Of a stretch of DNA of 64,000 nt, positions 13,309 through 48,609 are shown in pieces. A program made the translations under genes and the position numbers. The notes below the pieces were generated by a model that worked only from the letters and a program-made list of their open reading frames with translations, searched no databases and was not told where the DNA came from. Source of the stretch: Clostridia bacterium (lineage in GTDB: Bacteria; Bacillota; Clostridia; CAKSNL01; HGM11501); the NCBI GenBank assembly GCA_045545475.1, contig JAZQAZ010000008.1, positions 64,001-128,000 of the forward strand, given 5' to 3'. Each line of letters starts with the position of its first letter. The first letter of the stretch is position 1.

Positions 13309-14007
13309 ATGGAAATAAAAGAAATTCTAAGAGAAACATATTTGAAATATGGAGACACTCTATTTTTAGATAATAAGAAATTAATAGGGAATATTCGAGA
13401 TTTGCTTTCTGATTATCCGTCTGAGGTTAAAAAGATTGCTTTGATTATAAATGAAAATATAGTATCAAAGATAATAAAAGAGGTGGATGCTAATACTATA
13501 GAAAGAAACATGATTTATGCTCAAATGCTTGTTGATAATTACTCAATGGATTACGAAGTAGCGCGAAGATTTATCGGTTACTTTATTTATGCTACAAAAG
13601 GTATAGATTGTGTGCAAAATACCGGAAAATATCCTAAAGCAAGCAATACTGATCAAGCGGCAAAAGATAAACTGAAAACGCCATGCAGCAATGCAATGGA
13701 CATAGCTATGCAGAAAGAAGATATAAGTTATGATTCCGGATATGCAGAACTTCCAATCGAGATTGTATTTTCTATTTTCGGAAGAGGTGTTGTTATTGCT
13801 GGCAAGATTTCAAAAGGGAAAATATCAATCGGAGATGAATTGACTATTGGTTACCGTAAATGTGTTGTATCGGCCATAGAAAAAAACGGAAAGCTTATAG
13901 AAAATGCGACGCATGAAGATGGTGAAATAGGTCTACTCATAAAAAATATTAAAAAAGCTGATGTGAAAATAGGTATGGTAGCTAAAAAAAAATATATGAA
14001 ATTTTAA
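13309..14007 (+). CDS. Hypothetical protein: shared uncharacterised N-terminal domain plus EF-Tu domain II-like beta-barrel
   Basis: N-terminal ~95 aa align with ORFs 38698 and 39785; C-terminal LPIEIVFSIFGRGVVIAGKISKGKISIGDE...IGLLIKNIKKADVKIGMV resembles EF-Tu domain II; GGAGG RBS; own TTGATT/TATAAT promoter. Confidence 0.7.
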   Translation: MEIKEILRETYLKYGDTLFLDNKKLIGNIRDLLSDYPSEVKKIALIINENIVSKIIKEVDANTIERNMIYAQMLVDNYSMDYEVARRFIGYFIYATKGIDCVQNTGKYPKASNTDQAAKDKLKTPCSNAMDIAMQKEDISYDSGYAELPIEIVFSIFGRGVVIAGKISKGKISIGDELTIGYRKCVVSAIEKNGKLIENATHEDGEIGLLIKNIKKADVKIGMVAKKKYMKF

Positions 14008-31347: not shown

Positions 31348-31378
31348 AAAAAAATGCAGACAAAAGTCTGCATTTTTT
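31348..31378. terminator. Bidirectional terminator
   Basis: AAAAAATGCAGAC-AAAA-GTCTGCATTTTTT. Confidence 0.8.
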
Positions 31379-32204
31379 ACTTTGTGTGTTTTTTCCGCCA
31401 TACACTTGGGGAAAGACCTGTTTTTGATTTGAATACGGTGGCAAAGTGGGTGCCGGATGAAAAGCCTGTATCTTCAGCAATGGCATCTACAGTGGCGTTG
31501 GTATTAATAAGCCAACGGCAGGCAATTTTTATTCGCTCTTCAATAATTGCCGTGTGTAGCGTTTTGCCCGTAGCCTTTTTGAAAGCCGATTCAAGATAAA
31601 CGGGGTGATAGCCGAAATGCTTTGCAATTTCCTTGGTTGATTTTATTTCGGTTGCGTTAATTGCAATATAACCGTTTATTTTTGAGGCAAGGAGTGTTTC
31701 GGGATTTTCATTTTTGTTACTTATACTTGCAAGAATAACTTTAAGCTTTCCGGAGCAAAGAGCATCGGTAGAATCATCCTGATTTTTGAATGAACCTGTT
31801 ATATCTTTAAGGTCCGATTCCAAATGCTGTAGATTATGAAGAACTGTCGGTTTTTCAAATCCTTTTATAAGCATAGGGTCAAAGAGGAATTTTTCATCAA
31901 ACTGATTTTCGGGTGGAGGCGAAAGAAAAGTTTTGTTATAATCAAGAGAGCGGGTTACGTCAAAATTTATAACAATAACCTTCATTTTACCTCTGAAATG
32001 GTAATTTACGGCAGGAGGAAGTATTATAAGGCTTCCTCCTGAAAGTTCGTAATCTTTGTTTTCAATAACTATTATTCCCATGCCTGCCAGAACATAAAAC
32101 AATCTGTGGTCATAGGCTTTTCTCGGGCCTTCTCCTTCTAAAATGGCAGGAGTAACAAGGGCATTTCTTATAAAGGGATTGCATTTTTCTAAGGGCAACG
32201 ACAT
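31377..32204 (-). CDS. AraC family transcriptional regulator
   Basis: DHRLFYVLAG cupin-like region; TGFSSGTHFATVFKSKTGLSP HTH. Confidence 0.88.
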   Translation of the reverse strand: MSLPLEKCNPFIRNALVTPAILEGEGPRKAYDHRLFYVLAGMGIIVIENKDYELSGGSLIILPPAVNYHFRGKMKVIVINFDVTRSLDYNKTFLSPPPENQFDEKFLFDPMLIKGFEKPTVLHNLQHLESDLKDITGSFKNQDDSTDALCSGKLKVILASISNKNENPETLLASKINGYIAINATEIKSTKEIAKHFGYHPVYLESAFKKATGKTLHTAIIEERIKIACRWLINTNATVDAIAEDTGFSSGTHFATVFKSKTGLSPSVWRKKHTK

Positions 32205-32308
32205 AACATCACCTTTGTTTTTTGAAGATTTTTATTTGTTTTATGACTTGATAATAGCATAGCTTTAAAATAAAATCAATATGAAAATAAAAAAGGAGTG
32301 ATATTATT

Positions 32309-34036
32309 ATGTTTTACGCAGTTGACAATAACGGGAAAAGAATGGAATTTGAAACAGAAACAGTCGGAAACAGCACTTTTCTTACTCTTAAAAAGGAAAA
32401 GTTTGCCGATGCAAAGGCATTGGAGGCACTTACGGAATTTACTTCGGCAAACGCAGGTGAAGACGGATTTTACATTGTAACAAGAAATACATATAAGTAT
32501 GGGGATTTATATACAACCTTTACCGAAGTTCCTGACGAAGAAGTTTTTGTGTATGACCCCGTATTGGCGTGCTCTGCAATAAAGACCGCCCGTTTTTGCG
32601 GACTTATCCGTTTTGAAAGAAATTATCAGGCATCTTTCAAAGTAAAGGTAAAGGATAATAAATATTCTTTAAGCCTTGTTTTTCCCTTTGGTGGACCGGA
32701 AAAACACAGATCTCGTGATGCTGCATACGACGATATCAGAATAGAACTTGTGGAGCTTCCGAGAACATCGACTATAGGTGATTTTGCAAAGGCAGAGCGT
32801 GATATAAGACTTAAAAGGGGAGAAATAACGACTCTCGCTGAAAAGTGCGAAAGGGAAGTTGTTGAATATTCAAGAAAGCATCCCTTAATCCGTATCAGAA
32901 TGGCGTGGAAGGAAAGTCCTTCTCCCATAAAGCATCAGCACGCAGGAAACGAACCTATGATGCATAGAGCCGTTACCTTTGCGAGAGTAAGGGATATTGC
33001 AGACAGCCTTAAAGCCAAAGGCGTTGAAGGTGCTGACCTTCAGCTTGTAGGCTGGAATAAATCGGGACACGACGGAAGATTCCCTCAGCTTTTCCCGGTA
33101 GAGCCTATGCTGGGCGGTGAGGCAGAGCTTCGTAAAACTATAGAATATGTAAAATCTCTCGGCTATAAAATTTCTCTCCATATAAGTACTCTGGATGCTT
33201 ATGAGGTAGCTGATTGCTTTAAGTGGAACGATATAACAGTAAGAGATGACGGAACCTATCTTCAGAGAGGTGACTACGGCGGAGGATATCCTTATATCGT
33301 TTGCCCCAAAAAGCAAAGAGAAATAAATAAAAAGCATTTAGAGAAAATAAAAGCCCTTGGCGTAAACGGTATGCATTATACCGACGAGATTTCTATTATA
33401 CAGCCTGATACTTGCTACTCTGAAGAACACCCCTGCACAGGAAAAGAAGGAATTAAAGAATATCTTGGCATTATGAAAGATACCAAGGAAGCTCTCGGAG
33501 GATTTTCTTCCGAAGGCACATATGATTTTTCAATTCCCGAACTTGATTTCGGTCTTTATGTAAGCTTTGGCGCAAGTTTCGGAATGGTGCCTCCCTTCGG
33601 CGGAAACTTTATCCCGTTTTTCGAGCTTGTTTATCACGGTATTATACTCTATAATCCCATGAGTCCTACCGTTAACTATACAATTAAAAGTGCCCGAGAC
33701 AGACTTGTATTCTTCTTACGAGGAGGAAGGCCTTCCTTCTACATTTACTCCCGATTCAAGGGCGACGGTTCTGACTGGATGGGAACTGTTGACTTAGAGG
33801 TTGACAGCAACGAAAGCCTTGACAGAGCAACCGATGCAATTGCAAAAGGAGAGGCTGAATACAAAGAATTTGCGGACCGACAGTTTATATTTATGAAGGA
33901 TTATGTTGTCATAGGGGACGGAGTTGAAGCGGCAATTTATGAAGATGGGGTAACAATAGCCGGAAACTTTTCAGAGGAAGATAAGGTTTATGAAGGACAC
34001 GTTGTACCTGCAGGGGACTTTATCGTAATAAAATAA
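32309..34036 (+). CDS. Putative cytoplasmic glycoside hydrolase (DUF5696 / GH101-GH129-like barrel)
   Basis: TF..V..I...LK..G, GWNKSGHDGRFP, LGGEAEL, SEG, IPFFELVYHG pattern; no signal peptide. Confidence 0.55.
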   Translation: MFYAVDNNGKRMEFETETVGNSTFLTLKKEKFADAKALEALTEFTSANAGEDGFYIVTRNTYKYGDLYTTFTEVPDEEVFVYDPVLACSAIKTARFCGLIRFERNYQASFKVKVKDNKYSLSLVFPFGGPEKHRSRDAAYDDIRIELVELPRTSTIGDFAKAERDIRLKRGEITTLAEKCEREVVEYSRKHPLIRIRMAWKESPSPIKHQHAGNEPMMHRAVTFARVRDIADSLKAKGVEGADLQLVGWNKSGHDGRFPQLFPVEPMLGGEAELRKTIEYVKSLGYKISLHISTLDAYEVADCFKWNDITVRDDGTYLQRGDYGGGYPYIVCPKKQREINKKHLEKIKALGVNGMHYTDEISIIQPDTCYSEEHPCTGKEGIKEYLGIMKDTKEALGGFSSEGTYDFSIPELDFGLYVSFGASFGMVPPFGGNFIPFFELVYHGIILYNPMSPTVNYTIKSARDRLVFFLRGGRPSFYIYSRFKGDGSDWMGTVDLEVDSNESLDRATDAIAKGEAEYKEFADRQFIFMKDYVVIGDGVEAAIYEDGVTIAGNFSEEDKVYEGHVVPAGDFIVIK

Positions 34037-34047
34037 GGAGCGGAAAA

Positions 34048-34596
34048 ATGGAAGTTTTCAAAGAATGGCTGTTTTCGGGATTTGACAACCCGAAGGCGAT
34101 AGCCGCACAGATTATAGGAATTATTCCGATTTTAATTTCAATTTTTATCTATACACAGAATACGCGTAAAAAGATAGTGATTGCAAAAGCCACCATGGAT
34201 TTATTTCTTGCAACACATCTTATACTCCTTGAAACATATACAGGAGCACTGCTTAATATTGTTGTAACCATAAGAAATCTTCTGTTTCTTAAAAAAGAAA
34301 AGATGGGAAAATGGAAAAATATAACTTTAGCCTTTTTTGCGTTTTTCATCATACTTTGTGCAATTCCTGATTTTTCGGGATTCAAGTCGTTATTGCCCGT
34401 AACAGGCTCTCTCTTTGCCCTTATAGGTTTCTGGCAGGATGATATTAAAAAATTAAGATTATTAAATCTTGTAAGCACTTCGCTTTGGCTTATATATGCA
34501 ATATGGGTAGTATCAGTTCCTACGGCATTTATAAGTGCTTTCTCAATTATATCTATTTTAGCAGGGCTTATCCGCTCCGCAAAGGATAAAAACTGA
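34048..34596 (+). CDS. YgjV-like inner membrane protein
   Basis: Multiple TM helices; AQIIG, H..LL..YTGA, LRLLNL...LWLIY pattern. Confidence 0.65.
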   Translation: MEVFKEWLFSGFDNPKAIAAQIIGIIPILISIFIYTQNTRKKIVIAKATMDLFLATHLILLETYTGALLNIVVTIRNLLFLKKEKMGKWKNITLAFFAFFIILCAIPDFSGFKSLLPVTGSLFALIGFWQDDIKKLRLLNLVSTSLWLIYAIWVVSVPTAFISAFSIISILAGLIRSAKDKN

Positions 34597-34770: not shown

Positions 34771-36060
34771 ATGGATATTCGAGAAAAGCTTTTAATACTT
34801 GGTGATGCGGCGAAATATGACGTAAGCTGTTCATCCAGCGGCTCTGGAAGGGAAAACACAAAGGGCGGAATCGGAAATGCAATGGCGTGCGGTTGCTGTC
34901 ACAGCTTCACAGCGGACGGAAGATGTATTTCGCTTTTAAAGGTGCTTATGACAAACTACTGCATTTATGATTGCAAGTACTGCATCAACCGTCGCTCCAA
35001 CGATGTGAAAAGGGCGGCGTTTACCCCGAGGGAGCTTGCGGATTTAACCATTGAGTTTTATAAAAGAAATTACATCGAAGGACTTTTCATAAGCTCCGGC
35101 ATAATAAAAAGTCCCGATTATACTATGGAGCTTTTCATCGAAACCCTCCGCATTTTAAGAAAAGAATATCGCTTTAACGGCTATATCCATGTAAAGGCGA
35201 TACCGGGAGCGGACGATGCCTTAATAAAGGAAACGGGGCTTATGGCAGACAGAATGAGCGTGAATATCGAGCTTCCCTCGGAAATGTCATTAAACCGCCT
35301 TGCACCGGATAAAAGCAAGGCAGGCATTCTTAAGCCTATGGGTCTTATAACGGACAAAATAAGGGAAAACAAAAACGAGCTTACATTATATCGCCACGCA
35401 CCGAGCTTTGTGCCCGGCGGTCAGAGCACACAGATGATTGTGGGAGCGACGAAGGATTCCGACAGACAGATAATAAACCTTGCGGAAGGACTTTATAAAA
35501 AATATTCCCTTAAAAGAGTGTACTATTCTGCCTACATCCCGATGAATGATGATTCCAGCCTTCCCAGCATCTACGGAAAGCCGCCGCTTCTTCGTGAACA
35601 CAGAATTTATCAGGCGGACTGGCTTATGAGGTTTTACGGCTTTAAGGCAAGTGAGCTTCTATCTGAAGAACGCCCCTTTTTCAGCGAAAATTTAGACCCG
35701 AAGTGCGATTGGGCACTGCGTAATTTTCACCTTTTTCCGTTGGATGTAAATACCGCAAGCTATGAAATGCTCCTGCGAGTACCGGGAATAGGCGTTACAA
35801 GCGCAAAAAGAATAGTAAAGGCAAGAAGAGTTGCCCATCTTGATTATCAGACACTTAAAAAAATAGGTGTGGTATTAAAAAGGGCACAGTTTTTTATAAC
35901 CGTGAAAGGAAAGTATTTAAATCCGTTTCCGAAAAAGGAAAAATTTGTCGAGGCTAATCTTGAAATTGGTGCTATGCCACGCCTGGGCGGATATGAACAG
36001 CTGTCCCTTTTCGGAAACAACTTATTGGAGGCAAGCTATGGAAACAGTTTATGTGTATGA
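34771..36060 (+). CDS. Putative DNA modification/repair radical SAM protein (TIGR03916-like)
   Basis: AAKYDVSCSSSG, DGRCISLLK, CIYDCKYC, GQSTQMIVGA, REHRIYQADWL, HhH motif RVPGIG. Confidence 0.9.
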   Translation: MDIREKLLILGDAAKYDVSCSSSGSGRENTKGGIGNAMACGCCHSFTADGRCISLLKVLMTNYCIYDCKYCINRRSNDVKRAAFTPRELADLTIEFYKRNYIEGLFISSGIIKSPDYTMELFIETLRILRKEYRFNGYIHVKAIPGADDALIKETGLMADRMSVNIELPSEMSLNRLAPDKSKAGILKPMGLITDKIRENKNELTLYRHAPSFVPGGQSTQMIVGATKDSDRQIINLAEGLYKKYSLKRVYYSAYIPMNDDSSLPSIYGKPPLLREHRIYQADWLMRFYGFKASELLSEERPFFSENLDPKCDWALRNFHLFPLDVNTASYEMLLRVPGIGVTSAKRIVKARRVAHLDYQTLKKIGVVLKRAQFFITVKGKYLNPFPKKEKFVEANLEIGAMPRLGGYEQLSLFGNNLLEASYGNSLCV

Positions 36061-36787
36061 CGGAAGCTTTGAAGGACTTCTTACAGCGGTATTTGATACC
36101 TATGTGCGAAAGGAAGAACCGGTTTTAATATCGGAAAGCAATAATTTTCAGCTTCTTTTGGATACCTTGGTTTATAATGTTGTAACGGACGATGAAAAGG
36201 CGGAACGTGTTATAAACAAGGTGACTGAGGTTGTGGGTAAATATGGCACTCTTACCATTTACAGAGCCTTTCTTTCTAAGGAACAGGGCAGGGCAAAGGC
36301 GATTTTGTACTATATCCGCCTGCTTATGAAAATGGGGAAGGAAGCGGAGCGTTTTTTGGGTAACGAGCACGTTATGAACGTAATGGAAATGGCAAGGAAA
36401 ACGGGAAATGAAGCACATCTTTTAAAGGGCTTTCTCCGCTTCGGTTCACTTTCCGACGGAACCTTTTATGCTGAGTTTTCGCCTAAAACCGACTGCATCA
36501 TTTTCCTTGCAGAGCATTTTAAAAGAAGGCTTTCCGGTGTTCCTTTTATAATTAATGACCTCACAAATAAAAAGGCGGCACTTTGTAAGGACGGAAAGCT
36601 TGATATTTTTCCTTATGAAAGCTTTGAAAAACCTCAATACGATGCTTCTGAAAAGGATTTTAAGAAAATGTGGAAGGATTTTTACGATACCGTGGCTGTT
36701 GAAGGCAGGGAAAACGAGCGTTGCCGTATGACTCATATGCCAAAACGCTTCTGGAAGCACATTATTGAAGTTTCGGGAGAAGTGTGA
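36038..36787 (+). CDS. TIGR03915/DUF4130 family putative DNA repair protein
   Basis: YDGSFEGLLTAVF, EAHLLKGFLRF, HF..RL, HMPKRFW; coupled to the radical SAM gene. Confidence 0.88.
   Translation: METVYVYDGSFEGLLTAVFDTYVRKEEPVLISESNNFQLLLDTLVYNVVTDDEKAERVINKVTEVVGKYGTLTIYRAFLSKEQGRAKAILYYIRLLMKMGKEAERFLGNEHVMNVMEMARKTGNEAHLLKGFLRFGSLSDGTFYAEFSPKTDCIIFLAEHFKRRLSGVPFIINDLTNKKAALCKDGKLDIFPYESFEKPQYDASEKDFKKMWKDFYDTVAVEGRENERCRMTHMPKRFWKHIIEVSGEV
36652..36759 (+). repeat. Direct repeat copy 1 (3' end of the DUF4130 gene); copy 2 at 41491-41597
   Basis: AAAGGATTTT.AGAAAATGTGGAAGGATTTTTACGATACCGT.GCTGTTGAAGGCAGGGAAAACGAGCGTTGCCGTATGACTCATATGCC is near-identical in both copies. Confidence 0.95.
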
Positions 36788-36857
36788 GAAAAGTGTTGAA
36801 GTTGGTAATTAGGTGTGTTATAATAGATCTGTTAATAATTGTTAGGAGGAAATAATT

Positions 36858-37586
36858 ATGCCTTATGTAGAAGATTTATTTGAACAACCAATGAGGGAAC
36901 AGACTATTTTCTTTATTCTTGATACATCAGGAAGCATGAATTTAGAAGATTCAATTATGCATCTTAACAGGGCGATTCGTGAAACTACACTTTTTTTGAG
37001 AGAAAAAGCAGAAGAAATCGAGGACTATATAATTAAAATTGCTCTCATCGAATACAATAGCGGATGTAGATGGTTAACACCAAGACCTGTGCCGGTACAA
37101 GATTATTCATATGAAGATCTCGTTGCTGATGGTGCAAGCAATATATATTCTGCGTTGTATGAACTTAATTCAAAAATGTCTCGTGCAGCATTCTTCGATT
37201 CACCCGGTGGGCGGATGGTGCCTATTCTTATATTCATCAATGGCGGAGTTGCTACGGAAGATTACAAAAAAGCTCTTGAACAGCTGAAACAAAACAACTG
37301 GTTTAAAATAGCTTATAGGATTGCATTTGCTATTGGCGAATTTGCGGATATAGAGATGTTATCGGAAATTGTCGGGTTCAAAGAAAATGTTTTCCGTGTA
37401 GAGAAAGGCGAAGCTTTTACCGAACTGCTGATAGATAAGATACTGCTGATAGATAAGATGAGAACTTTAAAGTATCATTGTGATTTTGATTTGGACGAAA
37501 GCCTAAAGTATTATTTAGATAATAATATTGTTGTAGATATCGCTACTGAATATGATAAAGAGATTTGGGACGATGTTGAGTGGTAA
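36858..37586 (+). CDS. TerY-like vWA domain protein
   Basis: IFFILDTSGSM MIDAS start, NNWFK..YRIAFAIG; own TTGAAG-17 nt-TATAAT promoter and AGGAGG RBS. Confidence 0.8.
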   Translation: MPYVEDLFEQPMREQTIFFILDTSGSMNLEDSIMHLNRAIRETTLFLREKAEEIEDYIIKIALIEYNSGCRWLTPRPVPVQDYSYEDLVADGASNIYSALYELNSKMSRAAFFDSPGGRMVPILIFINGGVATEDYKKALEQLKQNNWFKIAYRIAFAIGEFADIEMLSEIVGFKENVFRVEKGEAFTELLIDKILLIDKMRTLKYHCDFDLDESLKYYLDNNIVVDIATEYDKEIWDDVEW

Positions 37587-37619
37587 TATATAATTCTTCT
37601 AAATAGAAGGGAATTTAAA

Positions 37620-38531
37620 ATGCAGATAAAAGGCAAAATAAACAGAATTGTAAGATTAAGAATCAATTCGGATGGAGATGGAGTCAGAAGTGTTGTCTTT
37701 TTACAGAATTGTCCATTAAGTTGTTTATGGTGTTGTAATCCAGAAACAAGATTTGGAAAGAAATTCTATGAAAAAGACACAGACGAATTGTACGAATTGG
37801 TTAAGAGGGACATACCATACTTTGATTATTCGGAGGGCGGAGTTACCTTTACTGGTGGCGAACCATTGCTGCAATCTGATTACATTATTGAATTTGCAGA
37901 AAAACATTCAGACATTGGAAATATCGATATAGAAACATCATTATATGCAGACACAGAAATTGTTACTAAAATCACACCATACATAAATGAGTGGATTATA
38001 GATTATAAATGTCATGACGAGAAATCCATATTGAATACACAGGTGTCTCAAATGATGTTATAAAAAAGAATCTTAGATGGCTTGCAAATAGTATTGATAA
38101 GAAAAAGATACATATTGCTTTTCCCATAATTCCCGGAAAAAATGATTCGGGTGATAATATTAATAAAATGATTTCTTTTATGAAAGAAGTTGGCTTGACT
38201 TCTGTTTATTTACATCCATACCGAAAAAAAATCGGAAAGTAAATACAAAAAACTAAATTTGGAATTTGAAGATATACCTTCAGTGCCAACAGAAAGATTT
38301 TTCGAAATACAAAACATGTTCGAGAAAAATGGAATTTCAACAAGCAAAAAGACGGTTTATTTCGAAAAGGAAAAGTGCAGATTTCTAAAGGATACAAGGA
38401 AAAAAATATGTGCTGATAGGAATATTGATATATTTTTTGAGGAATGTAAATATGAGGGGGTATGCCCGGGTATTTGTCCGAAGTGTGAAAGTGAATTGGA
38501 TAAAATTAATGAAGAATACGGGAAAAAGTGA
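37620..38531 (+). pseudogene. Glycyl-radical-activase-like radical SAM protein with Cys-rich C-terminal domain, split by two compensating frameshifts
   Basis: DGDGVRSVVFLQNCPLSCLWCCNPE, GGVTFTGGEPLLQ; the -1 frame from ~38027 reads HIEYTGVSN...PIIPGKND...LHPY; a +1 shift at the A8 run 38224-38231 restores the frame into the C..LK..RKKIC...ECKYEGVCPGICPKCESEL tail. Confidence 0.75.
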
Positions 38532-38617
38532 GATGGCATTACGCCTTAGATTGACAATTTAGAGAATGCTAAGATAGAAGTTAATGCATAATTGTTAATA
38601 AGCGTTTTTGAAGTTGA

Positions 38618-38813
38618 TACATTAAAATAGACATTAAATCATTCGTATGGATATGATGCATATGATTTTATGGTAACGAATATGATGGGGGGAAAATATG
38701 GATAGCGAGATTTTGAATATATTAAGCAAGGCATACAAACAGTATGGAAGAGAGGTATTCTGTAATCCGTCAAAATTAAATGTGTATTTACGTGATTTGC
38801 TGGCAGAATATCC
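38618..38813 (+). repeat. ~196-bp direct repeat copy 1 (5' UTR plus first ~38 codons); copy 2 at 39704-39900
   Basis: TACATTAAAATAGACATTAAATCATTCGTATGG...GCAGAATATCC, nearly identical in both copies. Confidence 0.95.
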
Positions 38814-39645
38814 TGTCGAGAGGCGACGTATGTCAGTTGCTGTTTCGGAAGGATTAGTAAAGAAAATGATCGAAGCTGCTGATCGAAATGAATTTTTCAA
38901 TCAATATTTATATGTGGATGTATTGCATAGTTCGTACGGTATGGACAAGATACTGGCTGAGGAAGTTGTGAATATTTTTAGTACAGTGATATTTGTTACA
39001 TCGGCAACGTTTGATAAGATGGAAGTTGAGTTGGTGAAAACAAAAGCAGATGAAGAGAAGGTTTGTGACACAGAAACTAAAAAGCAAATTGCACAGGCAG
39101 ATATGTTATTTGAAAAAGGATTAAAAGAAGATGCGTATAAGCGATACTTGAATATTGCAGAAAAAGACAAAGCACCTGCTGCAATGTGGAGAGTCGCAAA
39201 ATGTCTGCTGCATGGATGGGGAGTTGATGCAGACGAAATTAAGGCAAAGCAATTTTTTATTGAAGCAAGCAATTACAACTACATTGATGCGGTTTATTAT
39301 GTTGCAACAAGTATATATACGGATGACGCTAAAAGATCATTTGACATGTTAAAAAAACTGGCTGATGAACATGCTCACCCCGGAGCTTATTACTCATTAG
39401 GTCGCTTATATGCAAATGGAAAAGGATGCAAACAGGATTATAATGCGGCTTTTGAGATGACAAGAATTGCAGCTGAGAAAAATCATTATTTTGCTATGAA
39501 CATTTTGTCTTCTATGTACTTTGCCGGAGAAGGCGTTAAGCAATCAGATGAAAAAGCAAAAGAGTGGCAGAAAAAGAGTGAATTGGTTCCGCGTACTACA
39601 GAAAAGATTTTCTTGGAAAAGATAAAGAAGGAATCAAGCTTATAG
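38698..39645 (+). CDS. Shared N-terminal domain plus Sel1-like (TPR) repeat protein
   Basis: AMWRVAKCLLHGWGVDAD, AYYSLGRLYANGKGCKQDY, AMNILSSMYFAGEGVKQS Sel1 repeats. Confidence 0.85.
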   Translation: MDSEILNILSKAYKQYGREVFCNPSKLNVYLRDLLAEYPVERRRMSVAVSEGLVKKMIEAADRNEFFNQYLYVDVLHSSYGMDKILAEEVVNIFSTVIFVTSATFDKMEVELVKTKADEEKVCDTETKKQIAQADMLFEKGLKEDAYKRYLNIAEKDKAPAAMWRVAKCLLHGWGVDADEIKAKQFFIEASNYNYIDAVYYVATSIYTDDAKRSFDMLKKLADEHAHPGAYYSLGRLYANGKGCKQDYNAAFEMTRIAAEKNHYFAMNILSSMYFAGEGVKQSDEKAKEWQKKSELVPRTTEKIFLEKIKKESSL

Positions 39646-39703
39646 AACAATCTTTTAATGGAGTTAATATTGTCGGTAATTTTGATGCAACAATATTTAT
39701 ATG

Positions 39704-39900
39704 TACATTAAAATAGACATTAAATCATTCGTATGGATATGATGCATATGATTTTATAGTAACGAATATGATGGGGGTAAAAATATGGATAGCGAGATTT
39801 TGAATATATTAAGCAAGGCATACAAACAGTATGGAAGAGCGGTATTCTGTAATCCGTCAAAATTAAATGTGTATTTATACGATTTGCTGGCAGAATATCC
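39704..39900 (+). repeat. ~196-bp direct repeat copy 2
   Basis: Matches 38618-38813 with a few substitutions and one indel. Confidence 0.95.
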
Positions 39901-40849
39901 GAATGAAAGGAAAAAATTATCCATAGCAGTTACAGAAAACTACTTTGCAAAAATGCTGGAAATACAGGATGAAGGAAATATAGTCCCGTTACCAATGTAT
40001 GTTGAACAGCTTGTGTCATCATATGGTATGAACAATGAAAATGCAACTCTAGTTGTTAACACAATATATGAAATAATAAAAGCTGCTAAATCGAAAGAAC
40101 TGGCTAGAGAAGAATATAAATTAAAGGATGAAAAAATCGGACAGGAATTGAACTTAAAGTTTGATTCTGTATTTGAAGTCGAATCCATATTAAAAAAATA
40201 CAGTGGGAATGAGCCTGTACTCAATATTCCTGAAGGAATAACAAAAATTGATGAGTCTGTTTGTAAAGAAAATGAAAAAATAGAAAAGATCTTATTTCCA
40301 AAAAGTATTAAACATTTAGGAGATTCTGTTTTTGAAGCATGTTTAAACCTTAAAGATGTTTCTTTCTCCGATGGATTGGTGACTTTGGGAAATAAATGTT
40401 TTAAGAATTGCAAGTCGATTGAAGAAGTCGTTCTACCGAACACGGTAACAAAAATTTCAGCAGAAGCGTTTAGAAACTGCACCGGACTAAAGAAATTCCG
40501 TATCCCGAAAGCTGTAGAAATAATCGAAAAACTTGCTTTTACAGGGTGCGATAACCTAAAAGAATTTATTGTAGATGATGCTAATCCGTTTTTGCGATCA
40601 GATGGACATGCGATATATACTAAAGATATGAAAACGCTTATTTGCTTTGCACCCGGATCCGATAAAGAGTACTATAAAATTCCGGATACAGTTACATATT
40701 TAAATGATAATGCTTTTTCAGGATGTATGAATTTAAGAGTCGTTGATGTTCCGGCAGGTGCGAAAAAAGGAAGTTACTGTTTTAGCGGTTGTGAAAATTT
40801 GCGTAAGGAAGAACAACGCTTTGCTACAAATATTAGAGATTTTTTATAA
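39785..40849 (+). CDS. Shared N-terminal domain plus BspA-type leucine-rich repeat (LRR_5) protein
   Basis: IPEGITKI, LPNTVTKISAEAFRNCTGL, IPDTVTYLNDNAFSGC repeats; no signal peptide. Confidence 0.85.
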   Translation: MDSEILNILSKAYKQYGRAVFCNPSKLNVYLYDLLAEYPNERKKLSIAVTENYFAKMLEIQDEGNIVPLPMYVEQLVSSYGMNNENATLVVNTIYEIIKAAKSKELAREEYKLKDEKIGQELNLKFDSVFEVESILKKYSGNEPVLNIPEGITKIDESVCKENEKIEKILFPKSIKHLGDSVFEACLNLKDVSFSDGLVTLGNKCFKNCKSIEEVVLPNTVTKISAEAFRNCTGLKKFRIPKAVEIIEKLAFTGCDNLKEFIVDDANPFLRSDGHAIYTKDMKTLICFAPGSDKEYYKIPDTVTYLNDNAFSGCMNLRVVDVPAGAKKGSYCFSGCENLRKEEQRFATNIRDFL

Positions 40850-40860
40850 TAAGAGAATGA

Positions 40861-41148
40861 ATTGAGGGACAGGATGCACCATTAATATTGTACATGGTTG
40901 TCCGTTCGGATATATGTATGGATCTTGACCCAAGCGGAGAAACTCTTGAAAAAATGGAGTACATAAACAAAATATTCAGTGAGCTTTCCGAAGAAAACGA
41001 AAACATTTCTCTTTTCGACGCTCGCAAAATTCCGTGGTTTGATTCCGATGTGCGGGGAAACGGAATTTTTAAGGAAGATATGGTGCACTATACTCCCGAA
41101 GCAAATCAATGGGTGGCTGAAGAATTTTTTAATAAATATAAAAAATAA
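40861..41148 (+). pseudogene. 3' fragment of a probable SGNH/GDSL-like hydrolase
   Basis: DMVHYTPEANQWVA resembles SGNH block V (DxxH); in-frame stop immediately upstream, no RBS. Confidence 0.5.
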
Positions 41149-41161
41149 AAGTGGGAAAATT

Positions 41162-41689
41162 ATGAAAAGAGTATTTGCTTTAATCGTTACCTTGGTAATA
41201 ATTTTCTCGCTTTTTGTAACGGTAAATGCATCGGGAGATAAAACCTATTATCCTTCCGATGTGGCAGAGAGCGGTGGAACGGTAACTGTTACGGACAGCG
41301 AAATCAAGGACTGGAAAATGAACGGATACATCAAATTTTCAGGCGTTGATATGACGGGGGTCAAGTCCGTTTCGGTAAACGGAAGCGTAAGACTTGAATC
41401 CGACAGAAACGGAGAAGTTTACTGCATACGTATGGACGGCCTTAAAAGTGAAATTTTAGGCTGGGTGAAGATGGATGAAACCGGAGGAGTAAAGGATTTT
41501 CAGAAAATGTGGAAGGATTTTTACGATACCGTAGCTGTTGAAGGCAGGGAAAACGAGCGTTGCCGTATGACTCATATGCCAAACACTTCTGGAAGCATAT
41601 GCCGGAGTTTGAGTGATAGAAGTTACGAAAATCAAACCATTTTTGCGATAATAATACTTGTATATTTTAAGGCTATGTTGTATAATTGA
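41162..41689 (+). pseudogene. Chimeric remnant: N-terminus of a third glycoside hydrolase paralog fused to the duplicated DUF4130 3' end
   Basis: MKRVFALIVTLVIIFSLFVTVNASGDKTYYPSD parallels the 43390 start; at 41491 it switches to KDFQKMWKDFYDTVAVEGRENERCRMTHMP from the 36038 gene. Confidence 0.85.
41491..41597 (+). repeat. Direct repeat copy 2 of the DUF4130 3' end
   Basis: Matches 36652-36759 with a few substitutions and a 1-nt deletion. Confidence 0.95.
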
Positions 41690-41727
41690 AACTGTGGGAA
41701 TTTGCATTGATAAGAGGAGTTTTTCAG

Positions 41728-43377
41728 ATGATTTTACCAAGAGTGAAAATGCGTAAAGATAAAGAAGGCGTGTTTCAAAACATAATCAGATATTACGGAA
41801 AAAGTGAATTTTCTGAAAATGCAATAAATTTGATTAAACATTTTTCTCCCGATATAAAATGCGAAAAAGACAGTAATCCGAATTTCTTTTTAACGAAAGA
41901 TAATTTCGAAGTAAAAGGAACATATAAGCTGACAGTTTCAGAATCGGAGATATGTATTTGCTACAGCGATTATGAAGGCGTGCGAAATGCTATATCCACA
42001 CTTGTGCAATTGAGAGTGGATGACGGGATTAAATGCGTTGAAATTTTCGACGAGCCGGACAATACATTTCGCTCTTGTATGCTTGATCTTGCAAGGGGAT
42101 ATGTGGAAATTGATGTATTGAAAGAACACATCATCCGAATGGCAATGCTTAAATTCAGCCACATACATCTGCATTTGATGGACAGACAATCTTATGTTTT
42201 GGAATCAGACGTTGTACCTAATCCCGATAAACACAGATTGTATACAAAAAATGAAATGGCTGAACTTATTGCCTTTTGCAAAAATCTTTCCCTTGAAGTC
42301 ATTCCGGAAATTGAAATTCCTGCACATGCGGTTAATCAGATAAAAGCTTTGCCCGAACTGGGATGCGATATAATAGATAAAAAGAAAGCAATAGATGCAA
42401 TTAAAAATCTTGATAATCCGAGAAAGAGGGAGTTTACAGACAACAAAAAAGGTGTAAGTTCTTGGGTTGTTTGTGCGGGAAAAGAAACAACTTATGTTAT
42501 ATTTGAAGAAATCATAAAAGAAGTTTTGGAAATCTTTGACGGACCCTACATACATATAGGAGGGGACGAACTGGAATTTACCTATCTTGGGGCACACCCT
42601 CATTGGGATAATTGTAGTTATTGCACTAAAAAAATGGAGGAAGAAAATATATCCGACTTAAGGGGTTTATATTATTATGTTATAAGAAGAGTATATGACA
42701 CAGTGAAATCTTTCGGCAGAAAGATGATTATGTGGAACGATCAGATTGATGTATTTAATCCTATTGATATTCCAAAAGATATTATCATAGAGTTTTGGAA
42801 CGGCAATGTGATAACAAAGGAAAGAGGAACTTATCAGAAACTTCTTGAACAAGGGTTCGAAACAATAAATGCAGAATGTCACTATTGCTATGTGGATTTT
42901 CCGCAATATATGAGAGAAGAAAAAATTACCCGTTGGAACACCCATAAAGAGTATGTCGGAGACAGTAAGCTTGACGGAAAAATCATTGGAGGAGAGATGT
43001 GTGCATGGGAACTCGGAAACCCATTGTATTCGTTTTATCCGTATAGCTTGCCGGTTTGTATGACTCTTTTTGCTGACAGGGTTTGGAATAACGATATATT
43101 CATCTACGATGATGAATATAAAAAGTCCGCCTTTTCTGTTATGGTCGGAGTTTATGACAGGAATACAAATCCTTTTTCGTTTTTCAAGGAATTTATTCCG
43201 CCTCGTGACAGAAATAAAAATATGCTTGAAGATATTGAACTTGATAGCATTTCTTTGGATGAATTAAGTGGCGAACTTTCCAAGATGAAAAAGATAAAAG
43301 CCCAAAGTGTATATGGAAAAAATGCACTTGATGCTTATATCGGATGTCTTGAAGATATAGAAAATATATTAAAATAA
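41728..43377 (+). CDS. Family 20 glycoside hydrolase (beta-N-acetylhexosaminidase-like)
   Basis: RSCMLDLARG, HLHLMD, IPEIEIPAH, HIGGDE catalytic motif, GGEMCAW; ATG at 41728 after AGGAG. Confidence 0.88.
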   Translation: MILPRVKMRKDKEGVFQNIIRYYGKSEFSENAINLIKHFSPDIKCEKDSNPNFFLTKDNFEVKGTYKLTVSESEICICYSDYEGVRNAISTLVQLRVDDGIKCVEIFDEPDNTFRSCMLDLARGYVEIDVLKEHIIRMAMLKFSHIHLHLMDRQSYVLESDVVPNPDKHRLYTKNEMAELIAFCKNLSLEVIPEIEIPAHAVNQIKALPELGCDIIDKKKAIDAIKNLDNPRKREFTDNKKGVSSWVVCAGKETTYVIFEEIIKEVLEIFDGPYIHIGGDELEFTYLGAHPHWDNCSYCTKKMEEENISDLRGLYYYVIRRVYDTVKSFGRKMIMWNDQIDVFNPIDIPKDIIIEFWNGNVITKERGTYQKLLEQGFETINAECHYCYVDFPQYMREEKITRWNTHKEYVGDSKLDGKIIGGEMCAWELGNPLYSFYPYSLPVCMTLFADRVWNNDIFIYDDEYKKSAFSVMVGVYDRNTNPFSFFKEFIPPRDRNKNMLEDIELDSISLDELSGELSKMKKIKAQSVYGKNALDAYIGCLEDIENILK

Positions 43378-46134: not shown

Positions 46135-48609
46135 ATGAAAAAGATACTCAATATATTATTAAGCTTAATCCTTGTTTTGTCCTGCTTTACAAATATAAGC
46201 TTTGCAGAAGACGAATATTATACCCCTGAAGCAACCTGGGAATATTCGGCAAACAGTGAATGGAGCGCAAATAAAATTGCAAAAGCCTTTGACGGCAATA
46301 TAAAATCTTTCTGGCACTCAAATTATGTGGCAGAAGGAACAACAATCACAAGTCAGGATAATCCTCCTTTTGAAATAACCGTTAAATTTCCCGAGGCAAT
46401 TTCTATTTCGGGCTTTGCCTACACTCCTAGACCGGAAGGTTCCGATGCAGGATGCGTGCTTGGCTATAAATTCCTTGTTGCGGAAAACGACGGCGACACT
46501 CCCGTGTTAATTGCAGAAGGAAAAATGGCAAACTCCAGAGATGTGAAAAAAGTTAAGCTTAAAGGAAATGTAAAGGCGAAAAAAGTTGTATTTATCATTA
46601 CAGAAGCCGTAAGAAATTACGGAACTATGGCAGAAATGGCTTTTATAAAGCCTGATGCATCTCTTAAAGATGTGAAAGCATCCGACATCAAGATAGGCGA
46701 AAGTACATTGGCAAGTAGCGACGATATGATTAAGACGGCTGAAGGGTGGATAATTACCGCAAACAGCGAATGGAAGGACAATAAAATCGCAAAGGCATTT
46801 GACGGCAATGTAAATTCTTTCTGGCACTCAAATTATGTGGCAGAAGGAACGACCATTACAAGCCAGGATAAGCCTCCTTTCGAAATTACTGTTACATTAC
46901 CTGAAGCAATTTCAATTTCAGGCTTTGCCTATACGCCAAGGCCTACAGGATCCGATGCAGGATGTGCACTTGGCTATAAACTCCTTGTTGCGGAAAACGA
47001 CGGCGACACTCCGGTTTTGGTTGCGGAAGGAAAAATGGCAAATTCCAGAGATGTAAAAACGGTAAAACTTACGGGGAACGTAAAGGTTAAAAAAGCCGTA
47101 TTTATCATAACTGAAGCTGTAAGAGATTACGGTACTATGGCAGAATTTAATTTCTTAAAGGCGAATTCATCCCTTAAAGATGTAAAGGCATCTGAAATTG
47201 TAGCGACAGGAAACTCTTCCGCAGCAAGTTCTTCAATTAAGAAAAACTGGAAGATTACCGCAAGCAGCGAATTTAAGGGGAACGAAATTGCAAAAGCCTT
47301 TGACGGTGATGTGAAAACCTTCTGGCATTCAAATTATAAGGCAGAAGGAAGCAATATAGTAAGTCAGGATAAGCCTCCTTACCAAATTACGATAGTTATG
47401 CCCGAAGGCGAAACAATATCAGGCTTTACATATACACCAAGACCTGCGGGAATGTCCGAGTCGGGAAGAGCGGTTTCCTATAAATTTTATATTGCAGGGA
47501 ATGAAACGGATGAGCCTGTTTTGGTAATGGAAGGCGATTTTGCAAACGATCCTGAACCTAAAACCATAAATTTAGCATGCAATGTAAATGTTAAAAAAGT
47601 TGTTTTTGAAATATCTTCGGGAATAAGAGGCTACGGCACAATGTCCGAATTTGATTTTGTCTATAAACGTTCGGACTACGATACCGTCGAAGCATCTGAA
47701 TTCCTTGCATACAAGGAAGCTAATCTCTATTATCCCATGCCTAAGGACGGAATGACAGCACATTCCGATTCTGTGTGGGAAAGCAATACCACCTCAAAGA
47801 TTCTTGACGGAAACATAGGAACATTCTGGCACGAAAATCCCGGTGATAAAGCACCTATCATACTTGACATTGATTTGGGTGCAGAATACGAAGTTTTGGG
47901 ATTTTCCTACTTCCCGAGAAAAGAGGCTGAAAACAAAGGACAGTGGAAGCGGTATAACGTATATACATCCGTTGATGGCAAGGATTTTGAATTGGTACTT
48001 GAGGATGCGAGAATGGATGTTGAGTATAAAGAGGTTATAGAACTCTTTATGTCTCCCGTAAAGTGCCGATATATTACCTTTGAAGTCCTTGAATTCAACT
48101 ATCACTGTGCTTGTGCCGAGCTTGAATTTTTTGAATCGGCAGAACAGAAAAACGCAAGAGAAAAAGCATCTTACGGAAAATATGTAATGCAGATAGACAA
48201 CCCCGTTATGAAGGTTACAAAGGGAGGAGAAGCTGAAAAAGAAGTTGTGCTCGATGTTGCCCCTTACCTTGATAACGGAACAACAATGATTCCTCTTCGT
48301 GGTCTTTTAACTGAAATGGGTGCGGAAATTACCTGGGATGGAGATACTCAAAGCATATTAGTTGTTCATCCAAAGGCAAAGGTTGAACTTCAGATAATGA
48401 ATCCGAGAGTATTTGTTACAACGGGTGGATACGGAAGAGTAAGATACACCCTTAAAGGCTCTGCTCCGAAGATTAAGAATTCAAGAACATTTATCCCTTT
48501 GAGATTTGTTTCTGAAAATCTTGGTTATACGGTTACCTGGGACGGGGAGACAAAAACCATAACCGTTGAAACGGCAAAGGTTACAGAATCATTTGATGCA
48601 AATAACTGA
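46135..48609 (+). CDS. Secreted protein with four F5/8 type C (CBM32) domains and a copper-amine-oxidase-N domain, paralog of 20011
   Basis: Repeated AFDG...FWHS...YTPR...AE units; APYLDNGTTMIPLRG, SRTFIPLRFVSENLG. Confidence 0.8.
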   Translation: MKKILNILLSLILVLSCFTNISFAEDEYYTPEATWEYSANSEWSANKIAKAFDGNIKSFWHSNYVAEGTTITSQDNPPFEITVKFPEAISISGFAYTPRPEGSDAGCVLGYKFLVAENDGDTPVLIAEGKMANSRDVKKVKLKGNVKAKKVVFIITEAVRNYGTMAEMAFIKPDASLKDVKASDIKIGESTLASSDDMIKTAEGWIITANSEWKDNKIAKAFDGNVNSFWHSNYVAEGTTITSQDKPPFEITVTLPEAISISGFAYTPRPTGSDAGCALGYKLLVAENDGDTPVLVAEGKMANSRDVKTVKLTGNVKVKKAVFIITEAVRDYGTMAEFNFLKANSSLKDVKASEIVATGNSSAASSSIKKNWKITASSEFKGNEIAKAFDGDVKTFWHSNYKAEGSNIVSQDKPPYQITIVMPEGETISGFTYTPRPAGMSESGRAVSYKFYIAGNETDEPVLVMEGDFANDPEPKTINLACNVNVKKVVFEISSGIRGYGTMSEFDFVYKRSDYDTVEASEFLAYKEANLYYPMPKDGMTAHSDSVWESNTTSKILDGNIGTFWHENPGDKAPIILDIDLGAEYEVLGFSYFPRKEAENKGQWKRYNVYTSVDGKDFELVLEDARMDVEYKEVIELFMSPVKCRYITFEVLEFNYHCACAELEFFESAEQKNAREKASYGKYVMQIDNPVMKVTKGGEAEKEVVLDVAPYLDNGTTMIPLRGLLTEMGAEITWDGDTQSILVVHPKAKVELQIMNPRVFVTTGGYGRVRYTLKGSAPKIKNSRTFIPLRFVSENLGYTVTWDGETKTITVETAKVTESFDANN

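Follow-up and report, generated by a model that had tools for sequence, protein, structure and literature searches.

Do four AT-rich genes that lie together in the genome of a Clostridia bacterium make up a conflict or stress system of their own, or do they belong to a system that is already known? The question is raised by a stretch of 64,000 nucleotides (the window; contig JAZQAZ010000008.1 of assembly GCA_045545475.1, genome G000 in what follows), in which an island at positions 36,830-40,869 encodes, all in the same orientation, a von Willebrand factor A (vWA) protein, a radical S-adenosylmethionine (SAM) protein, and two proteins that carry a common N-terminal domain (the N-domain) in front of Sel1 repeats or BspA-type leucine-rich repeats (LRRs). 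The first-pass annotation had taken these genes as a candidate for an undescribed, self-contained system. That proposal was not supported by the comparison with other genomes: the conserved partners of the N-domain are those of the known TerY-P triad, and the kinase and the PP2C phosphatase of the triad are missing from the island. The island is probably a laterally acquired satellite of a signalling/conflict system of the TerY-P type, and not an independent system. TerY-P triads are widespread, and protection against phage by them has been demonstrated in other work. The triad is said to have been defined, by Anantharaman, Iyer and Aravind in 2012, as a TerY-like vWA protein together with a PP2C phosphatase and a Ser/Thr kinase.

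Linkage of the N-domain to TerY-P triads

The linkage was found at loci anchored on an alignment of the window vWA and its relatives, which were collected from species-representative genomes (34 loci) and from metagenome contigs (79 loci), and were scored with a dedicated N-domain profile (E<0.01), with an iterated profile, and with phmmer. Because some contigs are present in both collections, the genome and metagenome counts are not independent. PP2C adjoins the vWA gene in all 34 genome loci, and a kinase lies within the fetched flank in 18 of them. The N-domain was detected in 12 of the 34 with the first profile (29 open reading frames, ORFs) and in 13 with the iterated profile (38 ORFs). 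By record title, the loci that carry it come from Helicobacteraceae, Planctomycetaceae, Treponema and other spirochaetes, and Clostridia, and the tails that follow it there comprise TPR, zinc ribbon plus LRR, WD40, FGE-sulfatase, DUF6273, solute-binding and glycine-zipper domains. No copy of the N-domain was found on the triad kinase, vWA or PP2C ORFs of the 34 genome loci at E<0.01. Among the 79 metagenome loci, PP2C was present in 74, a kinase in 58, and the N-domain in 25 or 32 (first and iterated profile, respectively); among metagenome loci of at least 10 kb, it was found in 15-17 of 32. The genes often form arrays of two to eight paralogues, and one metagenome locus (L112) holds eight copies. 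The family thus stands beside triads in Bacillota, Spirochaetota, Campylobacterota and Planctomycetota.

The reverse test started from the N-domain, in a random sample of the phylum in which four other Bacillota genomes have the domain. In both loci with flanks on the two sides (G726 and G627), vWA, PP2C and kinase genes are directly adjacent; of the remaining two, one lies on a contig of only 3.3 kb, and the other gene borders the end of its contig, where no triad is seen on the side that is present. A locus search anchored on an N-domain alignment (A2) gave patterns, and no confirmed locus, in the genome and metagenome collections. The linkage between N-domain proteins and TerY-P triads holds in both directions. 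The first-pass annotation had named neighbourhood enrichment as a check on its proposal; across phyla and in both directions co-occurrence was confirmed for vWA, kinase and PP2C, and not for the Cys-tailed radical SAM subfamily of the island, which is absent from triad-vWA loci in the genome (0/34) and metagenome (0/79) collections. In two Clostridia loci (L055:5290-6213 and L057:318-1241), a tyrosine integrase gene lies directly upstream of the block formed by triad and N-domain genes, which suggests that this block is carried on an integrative element.

The window's own genome has exactly one triad, on contig C10 (C10:46882-63889; L010, L007). The genes are ordered kinase, vWA, PP2C, transglutaminase, FtsK/EssC-like protein, WXG-like protein, radical SAM-SPASM protein and three N-domain genes, the latter with coiled-coil/transmembrane (TM), Sel1 and LRR tails. 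The Ser/Thr kinase (C10:46882-48225), with a C-terminal zinc ribbon (CPKC...CSKC), is the only one of its type in the genome, and the PP2C phosphatase (C10:49039-50436) is the only homologue. Neither a PP2C nor a Ser/Thr kinase was found in the island, and no PP2C in the 64-kb window. The PADLOC library, whose TerY-P model content is uncertain, returned no family for the window vWA, the C10 vWA or the C10 PP2C; the C10 kinase matched only generic kinase models (mad6, PD-T4-6), and the island proteins gave only weak pVip-like radical SAM matches. The C10 locus has a GC content of 0.359, compared with 0.40 in its flanks, and a gene for a TIR-Sel1-TPR protein lies 4 kb downstream. It also encodes a WXG/LXG-like protein with a weak papain-like (C39_2) match.

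A radical SAM-SPASM gene of the C10 type recurs in three or four loci that carry the N-domain (L051/L129, which are one contig found twice, L091 and L123). In L034, a small NrdG-like radical SAM gene, of another type, directly precedes a second vWA-PP2C-kinase set. A homologue of FtsK was found in none of the 13 N-domain-bearing genome loci and in only two of the 79 metagenome loci (L094/L097, probably one organism sampled twice).

The N-domain and its tails

Six copies of the N-domain are encoded in the genome: two in the island, one elsewhere in the window, and the three in tandem on C10. The profiles are specific, as only these six match among the 10,746 ORFs of the genome. The first island copy (38698..39645, forward strand; 315 residues) consists of the N-domain (residues 1 to ~105) and Sel1 repeats, without a signal peptide or TM segment, and the second (39785..40849, forward; 354 residues) of the N-domain and BspA-type LRRs, both tails being recognized by Pfam; their N-domains are 60% identical. 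The solo gene (13309..14007, forward) is flanked by a DAHP synthase gene and a TIM-barrel gene, with no vWA, kinase or PP2C gene nearby. Its N-domain is 32% identical to the first island copy and is followed by a tail that resembles domain 2 of EF-Tu, with a Pfam match below the cut-off (E 7.7e-5) and an NCBIfam EF-Tu match over residues 100-227 (E 3.6e-14). Both of the relationships that had been read from the letters alone, namely a common N-domain on two signal-less proteins with Sel1 or BspA-LRR repeats and a third family member with an EF-Tu-like domain, were therefore upheld.

Each N-domain gene of the island follows a 79-nucleotide leader (38618..38696, with a promoter-like site, and 39704..39782, both forward; repeat search and, for the first, motif scan). 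The two leaders are 97% identical, versus 85% for the coding 5′ ends that follow them, and they are the only two copies in the genome. A short hairpin is weakly predicted in each, with minimum free energies of -8.3 and -7.3 kcal/mol, calculated without a shuffle control. The reading frames of the two N-domain genes and of the vWA gene are open over their full length, and each of them has its promoter-like site and ribosome-binding site.

The family is small. A profile of the six genome copies, searched against 1.84 billion (1.84e9) representative proteins, retrieved 173 representatives at E<=1e-3. The domain was detected in two of 400 sampled class genomes, G000 itself and G215, the latter with a weak match that the iterated profile did not confirm, and in five of 401 sampled phylum genomes, G000 included. 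The domain is almost always N-terminal, sometimes after a zinc ribbon, and the tails of 149 scanned representatives are diverse. LRR_5 repeats were found in 18 and Sel1 repeats in 13; other repeat tails comprise TPR, WD40, RCC1, ankyrin, MORN and WG. Further tails are DUF6273, FGE-sulfatase, Lcl_C, NPCBM, solute-binding (SBP), SH3 (SH3_3), GYF and biotinyl/lipoyl domains, as well as S1, the L7/L12 C-terminal domain, EF-Tu domain 2, ABC ATPase, protein kinase (Pkinase), TIR, TM2 and multi-pass membrane segments. This diversity agrees with the earlier description of the N-domain as a constant module on interchangeable tails. In 47 of 150 representatives, a TM segment is predicted after the N-domain, and since this amounts to about a third, the domain is best seen as the cytoplasmic head of proteins that are either soluble or membrane-anchored. 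Tails derived from the translation apparatus (EF-Tu domain 2, the L7/L12 C-terminal domain and S1) occur in P0002, P0010, P0102 and P0118, and might serve as decoys.

An AlphaFold2 model of residues 1-110 of the N-domain-Sel1 protein has a mean confidence (pLDDT) of 87.3 and consists entirely of helices, six to seven in number. In an alignment of 100 members, Gly17 and Asp33 are kept in 90% or more, and the closer members also keep Phe21, Leu27, Leu35, Pro39, Glu41, Glu51 and Tyr80. The domain matches no described family in the searches made: Pfam at E<=5 gave nothing consistent on 14 N-domains, and no NCBIfam or PADLOC model matched it. Foldseek found no PDB structure at E<=0.001 (best E 2.4), and a PDB sequence-profile search gave a best E of 0.04. 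The best match of a VIA structure search was YpgQ, with a Z score of 5.8 and a root-mean-square deviation of 3.6 over 76 residues, which is at the noise level for helical bundles, and the ESM Atlas returned unnamed clusters only. Complex prediction for the window vWA (31-row alignment) and the N-domain (100-row alignment) scored 0.00 twice, in runs made without controls, and counts neither for nor against an interaction. A fusion of the N-domain to a kinase (P0011) was considered as a Rosetta-stone argument and rejected, as its kinase is distant from the triad kinase (E 0.002 over 40 residues).

A probably horizontally acquired cassette behind a native promoter

No other 4.08-kb stretch of the window is as AT-rich as the island, whose GC content is 0.335; the median of the window is 0.392, and the genome as a whole has 0.408. 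On the left it is bounded by the stop codon of a DUF4130 gene at 36787, which is followed by a native promoter-like site (TTGAAG-17-TATAAT with TG; 36796..36824, forward; motif scan) upstream of the vWA gene. The left junction lies at about 36826-36838, just past this site. Homology to the relative G010 (L026) continues through 36796-36824, and the native promoter is therefore now ahead of the vWA gene. On the right, the island ends at a decapitated SGNH/GDSL hydrolase gene, recognized by Pfam and by comparison with relatives, whose remaining 3′ end (40870..41148, forward) marks the junction and corresponds to the 3′ third of a 318-residue gene that is whole in G002 and G010. These two genomes belong to the same genus as G000, with DUF4130 orthologues that are 97-98% identical. 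BLAST comparison revealed that window positions 36793-40869 are missing from both, within flanks of 91-96% nucleotide identity, and that the place of the island is taken there by ~1.86 kb with two small membrane-protein genes and the complete SGNH gene. These findings show that the island is an insertion of ~4 kb, probably a horizontally acquired cassette, which replaced native DNA directly behind a native promoter. No integrase gene was found in the island. The four co-oriented, AT-rich genes between the DUF4130 stop and the decapitated gene are thus as the first-pass annotation had drawn them.

A 93-nucleotide direct repeat of the DUF4130 3′ end (36652-36744 and 41491-41583) was considered as a pair of attachment sites and rejected. 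Since island-free relatives already carry a copy, the repeat predates the island and is not its footprint. Rfam models gave one sub-threshold snoRNA-like match in 36000-42000, which was taken as chance. Only 0.06-0.07 of the island's words were found in public sequencing runs, from which no inference on habitat or strain was drawn.

The first gene of the cassette (36858..37586, forward) encodes a 242-residue vWA protein of the TerY/YegL type. Its Pfam VWA match is weak (E 1.6e-4, 22.3 bits against a cut-off of 23.8), and its profile matches solved vWA chains (E 1.8e-11). It is homologous to the triad vWAs (phmmer E 1e-30 to 1e-38), 61-63% identical to P0152 and P0153, and 42% identical to a JGI protein named 'YegL', in line with the TerY-like character first attributed to it. 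The only paralogue in the genome is the C10 vWA, with 35% identity, and no homologue of either was found in 60 relatives, 11 of them of the same genus. In the metal-ion-dependent adhesion site (MIDAS), the DTSGS sequence (DxSxS) is kept, the Thr is replaced by Ser, and the Asp by Gly (NGG), as had been suspected from the letters; of the 31 homologues aligned, 29 retain the Asp, and the closest relatives (61-63% identity) are among them. The protein consequently lacks the DxSxS...T...D pattern of a functional MIDAS. In a quick tree with moderate support, it forms a long-branch clade with P0152 and P0153 inside the Bacillota triad vWAs. Alignment and tree together show the window vWA, at the level of sequence, as a fast-evolving offshoot of these proteins that has lost its metal-site Asp. 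In L048 and L091, additional vWA copies arose by local duplication and have lost MIDAS residues too, so that a degenerate accessory vWA beside N-domain genes is a recurring pattern.

The second gene (37620..38531, forward) encodes a radical SAM protein that resembles the activases of glycyl radical enzymes (GREs) and has a Cys-rich C-terminal tail. It is split into pieces at 37620-38063, ~38027-38239 and 38235-38531, which run in frames 1, 3 and 1 owing to two mutually compensating frameshifts, -1 near 38025 (in a CC run) and +1 in an A8 run (38225-38232). The CX3CX2C motif is present (CPLSCLWC), and the best NCBIfam matches of all three pieces are GRE activases (TIGR02494/TIGR02493; E 3.4e-30 and 3.3e-10). 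All equivalog models score far below their cut-offs (105.3 bits against 174.35 for TIGR02494 on the first piece); the split of the gene lowers the scores. The last 98 residues, rich in Cys, have no NCBIfam match. About 50 clusters of intact homologues of 300-334 residues share 50-86% identity with the first piece (86% for P0156), have the Cys-rich tail in common, and are set well apart from true GRE activases. No Gly_radical gene was found in the window; the nearest is ~58 kb away on the same contig, and the genome has nine. An activase-like radical SAM protein without a nearby GRE, as stated in the first-pass annotation, is therefore an accurate description.

The Cys-tailed subfamily was found in two other genomes of the 400-genome class sample, after a shikimate operon in G214 and beside lipid genes and FtsH in G253, with no vWA, kinase, PP2C, N-domain or GRE gene in the flanks of either. 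In G214 (L064), it directly follows the shikimate operon and DAHP synthase, which is the slot of the solo N-domain-EF-Tu-D2 gene in the window; the shared slot may be a coincidence or an insertion hot spot common to both. Contigs of three public runs (X1, X2 and X3) contain close relatives of the island, with 80-90% nucleotide identity. The vWA and radical SAM genes are adjacent on one contig in X1 (record 1) and X2 (record 6), and the Sel1 and LRR genes lie on one contig in the same order in X1 (record 2), with an extra 1,041 nucleotides between them. An extra C follows position 38025 in X1 and X2, and X3 is consistent with it; X1 also has one base fewer at 38224, which leaves the frame intact there. 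A 211-nucleotide contig is 100% identical to the window, and its end is consistent with the extra C at the first frameshift. The breaks may be either very recent mutations or homopolymer assembly errors. The radical SAM gene most likely came along as a passenger in the donor cassette, and comparison of its sequence neighbourhoods does not support a role in the system beyond the close relatives of the island.

The surroundings bear further marks of rearrangement. A second strain-specific block (31355-34596), 2 kb upstream of the island, is also absent from G002 and G010, and encodes an AraC regulator (minus strand), a DUF5696 protein and a YgjV-like membrane protein. At 41134-41583, a truncated copy of the first ~120 codons of a gene for a 909-residue secreted protein (43390) is fused to the 93-nucleotide DUF4130 3′ copy. 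The relatives keep a shorter version of this scar, and the spot must therefore have been rearranged repeatedly. Farther away, three tandem repeats of ~510 nucleotides (46237-47607; 78-86% identical) within an 824-residue gene (46135-48609) correspond to repeated F5/8 type C domains.

Competing explanations and known systems

If the island is a satellite of a TerY-P system, its sensors could work as follows. In the cytoplasm, the helical N-domain of ~100 residues would dock to the triad and so connect it with a variable tail. Sel1, TPR, LRR, WD40, FGE-sulfatase, DUF6273 and EF-Tu-D2 tails would bind ligands, and TIR, glycine-zipper and TM2 tails would serve as effector-like outputs. The docking surface may include the nearly invariant Gly17 and Asp33 and the conserved Glu41 and Glu51, with Asp33 as a candidate ligand of the vWA MIDAS metal; alternatively, the N-domain may be a docking surface for the kinase. 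Ligand capture by the tail would be relayed to the kinase/phosphatase pair and set a phosphorylation switch, for which the island sensors of this strain would use the C10 kinase and PP2C in trans. The degenerate vWA, together with the radical SAM gene provided that its breaks are real, suggests a cassette in decay or one cut down to the pair of sensor genes. A bolder form of the proposal, which is tentative and on the whole doubtful, holds that the N-domain is an unrecognised adaptor, by which TerY-P switches acquire plug-in, laterally exchangeable receptors and effectors. Arrays with LRR, TPR/Sel1, WD40, FGE-sulfatase and DUF6273 tails would be pattern receptors, EF-Tu-D2, S1 and L7/L12 tails would be decoys for phage proteins that attack translation, TIR, glycine-zipper and TM2 tails would be executioners, and orphan cassettes such as the island would let a strain update the specificity of a triad that lies in another part of its genome.

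Several observations weigh against the satellite proposal, or limit it. No conserved Ser or Thr offers an obvious phosphorylation site in the N-domain. The island has no kinase or PP2C gene of its own, and the action of its sensors in trans is for that reason an assumption. As neither vWA nor the C10 PP2C has a PADLOC match, a defence role is argued by analogy only. The N-domain is missing from 21 of the 34 genome loci, which makes it an optional accessory of triads, and all Ruminococcus-labelled loci (L031-L033, L035, L037-L040 and L042-L047) are without it. The vWA and radical SAM genes stay adjacent in the close relatives of the island (X1 and X2), and a radical SAM gene, of a different family in each case, stands beside both N-domain clusters of this genome; for these two reasons, radical SAM chemistry may have a part after all. 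Lastly, the frameshifts are possibly assembly errors, and in that event the case for decay rests on one vWA residue.

Carried to its end, decay would leave the island as inert debris of a degraded mobile element, with unused genes whose likeness to those of C10 has no functional consequence. The two frameshifts would fit, as would the loss of a MIDAS Asp that the closest relatives keep, the lack of integrase, kinase and PP2C genes, and the scarred surroundings with their truncated SGNH gene, truncated copy of the 909-residue gene and DUF4130 3′ repeat. This explanation is nevertheless unlikely, as the vWA and both N-domain genes are full-length frames with promoter-like and ribosome-binding sites, the leaders are more alike than the coding 5′ ends behind them, and the frameshifts lie in homopolymers and may be assembly errors, the 211-nucleotide contig being consistent with the extra base. 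The opposite view, that the four genes form a self-contained conflict or stress system with a vWA core, a radical SAM enzyme that makes or modifies a signal or effector, and N-domain sensors, draws on their common orientation, tight spacing and single promoter. It can also point to the vWA-radical SAM adjacency (X1 and X2), the Sel1-LRR order and the intact radical SAM frame (X1) in contigs of two other studies, although these contigs are such close relatives of the island that they lend no independent support. A radical SAM gene beside both N-domain clusters, the recurrence of radical SAM-SPASM genes in L051/L129, L091 and L123, and the small radical SAM gene of L034 are further points in its favor. 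However, the radical SAM genes near N-domain genes belong to three unrelated subfamilies, and the Cys-tailed one never accompanies a triad-type vWA in the two collections and stands alone in G214 and G253. The proposed core has lost its MIDAS Asp, and the conserved partners of the N-domain, kinase and PP2C, are the very genes that the island lacks. A self-contained system is accordingly improbable.

The gene order on C10 raises another possibility: the N-domain could direct proteins, as an export or targeting signal, to the FtsK/EssC-WXG (type VII-like) machine encoded there, and the tails would then be adhesion modules that are secreted or exposed on the surface. An FtsK/SpoIIIE ATPase and WXG100-like proteins are encoded a few genes upstream of the three C10 N-domain genes, the N-domain proteins have no signal peptide, and BspA-LRR, NPCBM, SH3_3, SBP and Lcl_C tails are typical of extracellular proteins. 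FtsK linkage is, however, absent from all N-domain-bearing genome loci and nearly so from the metagenome loci. A TM helix often follows the N-domain when the tail is glycan-binding (NPCBM, DUF6273), which places the domain in the cytoplasm as the head of a membrane anchor, and the fusions to kinase, TIR, ABC ATPase, S1 and EF-Tu-D2 are cytoplasmic. An export signal is thus very improbable, and the satellite of a TerY-P-type system is retained as the preferred explanation. The island is best annotated as an accessory, possibly decaying cassette, and not as a new system. The family-level link between N-domain and triad is the more valuable result: ligand-binding repeats on one side and TIR or membrane-active tails on the other suggest specific proteins for the input and the output of the triad switch, and the link allows genes now listed as "hypothetical protein + Sel1/LRR" in Bacillota of the gut and rumen, and in spirochaetes of the termite gut, to be assigned to a known system.

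Comparison with described systems separates what is shared from what is particular to these loci. The radical SAM protein resembles GRE activases (pyruvate formate-lyase activating enzyme, PFL-AE; TIGR02494/TIGR02493) in its CX3CX2C motif and in the best matches of all three pieces, and differs from them in scores far under the cut-offs, in the lack of the ferredoxin insert of TIGR02494, in its conserved Cys-rich tail, and in the lack of an adjacent GRE gene here, in G214 and in G253. The resemblance to type VII (WXG/LXG) substrate loci is confined to the FtsK/EssC linkage of C10 and L094/L097. In Type III-A CoCoNuT operons, according to the parts of PMC11090510 consulted, TerY-like vWA genes flank accessory cassettes. 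The likeness to those parts is that duplicated TerY-like vWAs bracket variable add-ons, and triad-derived accessory vWAs are also found in L048, L091 and the window; the add-on here is an array of N-domain sensors, and McrBC/CoCoNuT components were not seen, in analyses that included no search aimed at them.

The adaptor principle itself has a precedent in the effector-associated domains (EADs) of NTPase/vWA ternary conflict systems, as far as these are set out in the excerpts used of Kaur et al. 2020 (PMC7159879). As described there, an EAD is, like the N-domain, a small non-enzymatic N-terminal module on many sensor and effector domains (FGE-sulfatase, TIR, repeats, TM), and there are several paralogues per genome, some of them away from the core locus. 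Unlike the N-domain, which was not found on the triad core, EADs are defined in these excerpts by a second copy on the core, which allows homotypic pairing. The core here is a kinase/phosphatase/vWA triad and not the MoxR, STAND or GTPase core given there, and no match to the N-domain was found in Pfam, which would cover any EAD models that it contains.

The closest relative among known systems is TerY-P. It is a stand-alone anti-phage system (Gao et al. 2020, as cited in the consulted parts of PMC11090510), and the available passages of PMC4978471 and PMC11090510 link its triads to WXG/FtsK modules and to defence. Full-text literature searches, which did not cover the founding 2012 paper, gave no description of N-domain arrays beside triads in the text that they returned, so that an earlier mention is possible. 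The island differs from TerY-P in having no adjacent kinase (zinc ribbon/OB fold) or PP2C gene, both of which are present on C10, and in a vWA that has lost its MIDAS Asp. The island vWA is homologous to the triad vWAs, and C10 has the full order of kinase (with zinc ribbon), vWA and PP2C, together with the WXG/FtsK module that the literature ties to triads. What is known is the triad itself, and what is new is a probable TerY-P accessory cassette built on an adaptor-like domain for which there has been no model.

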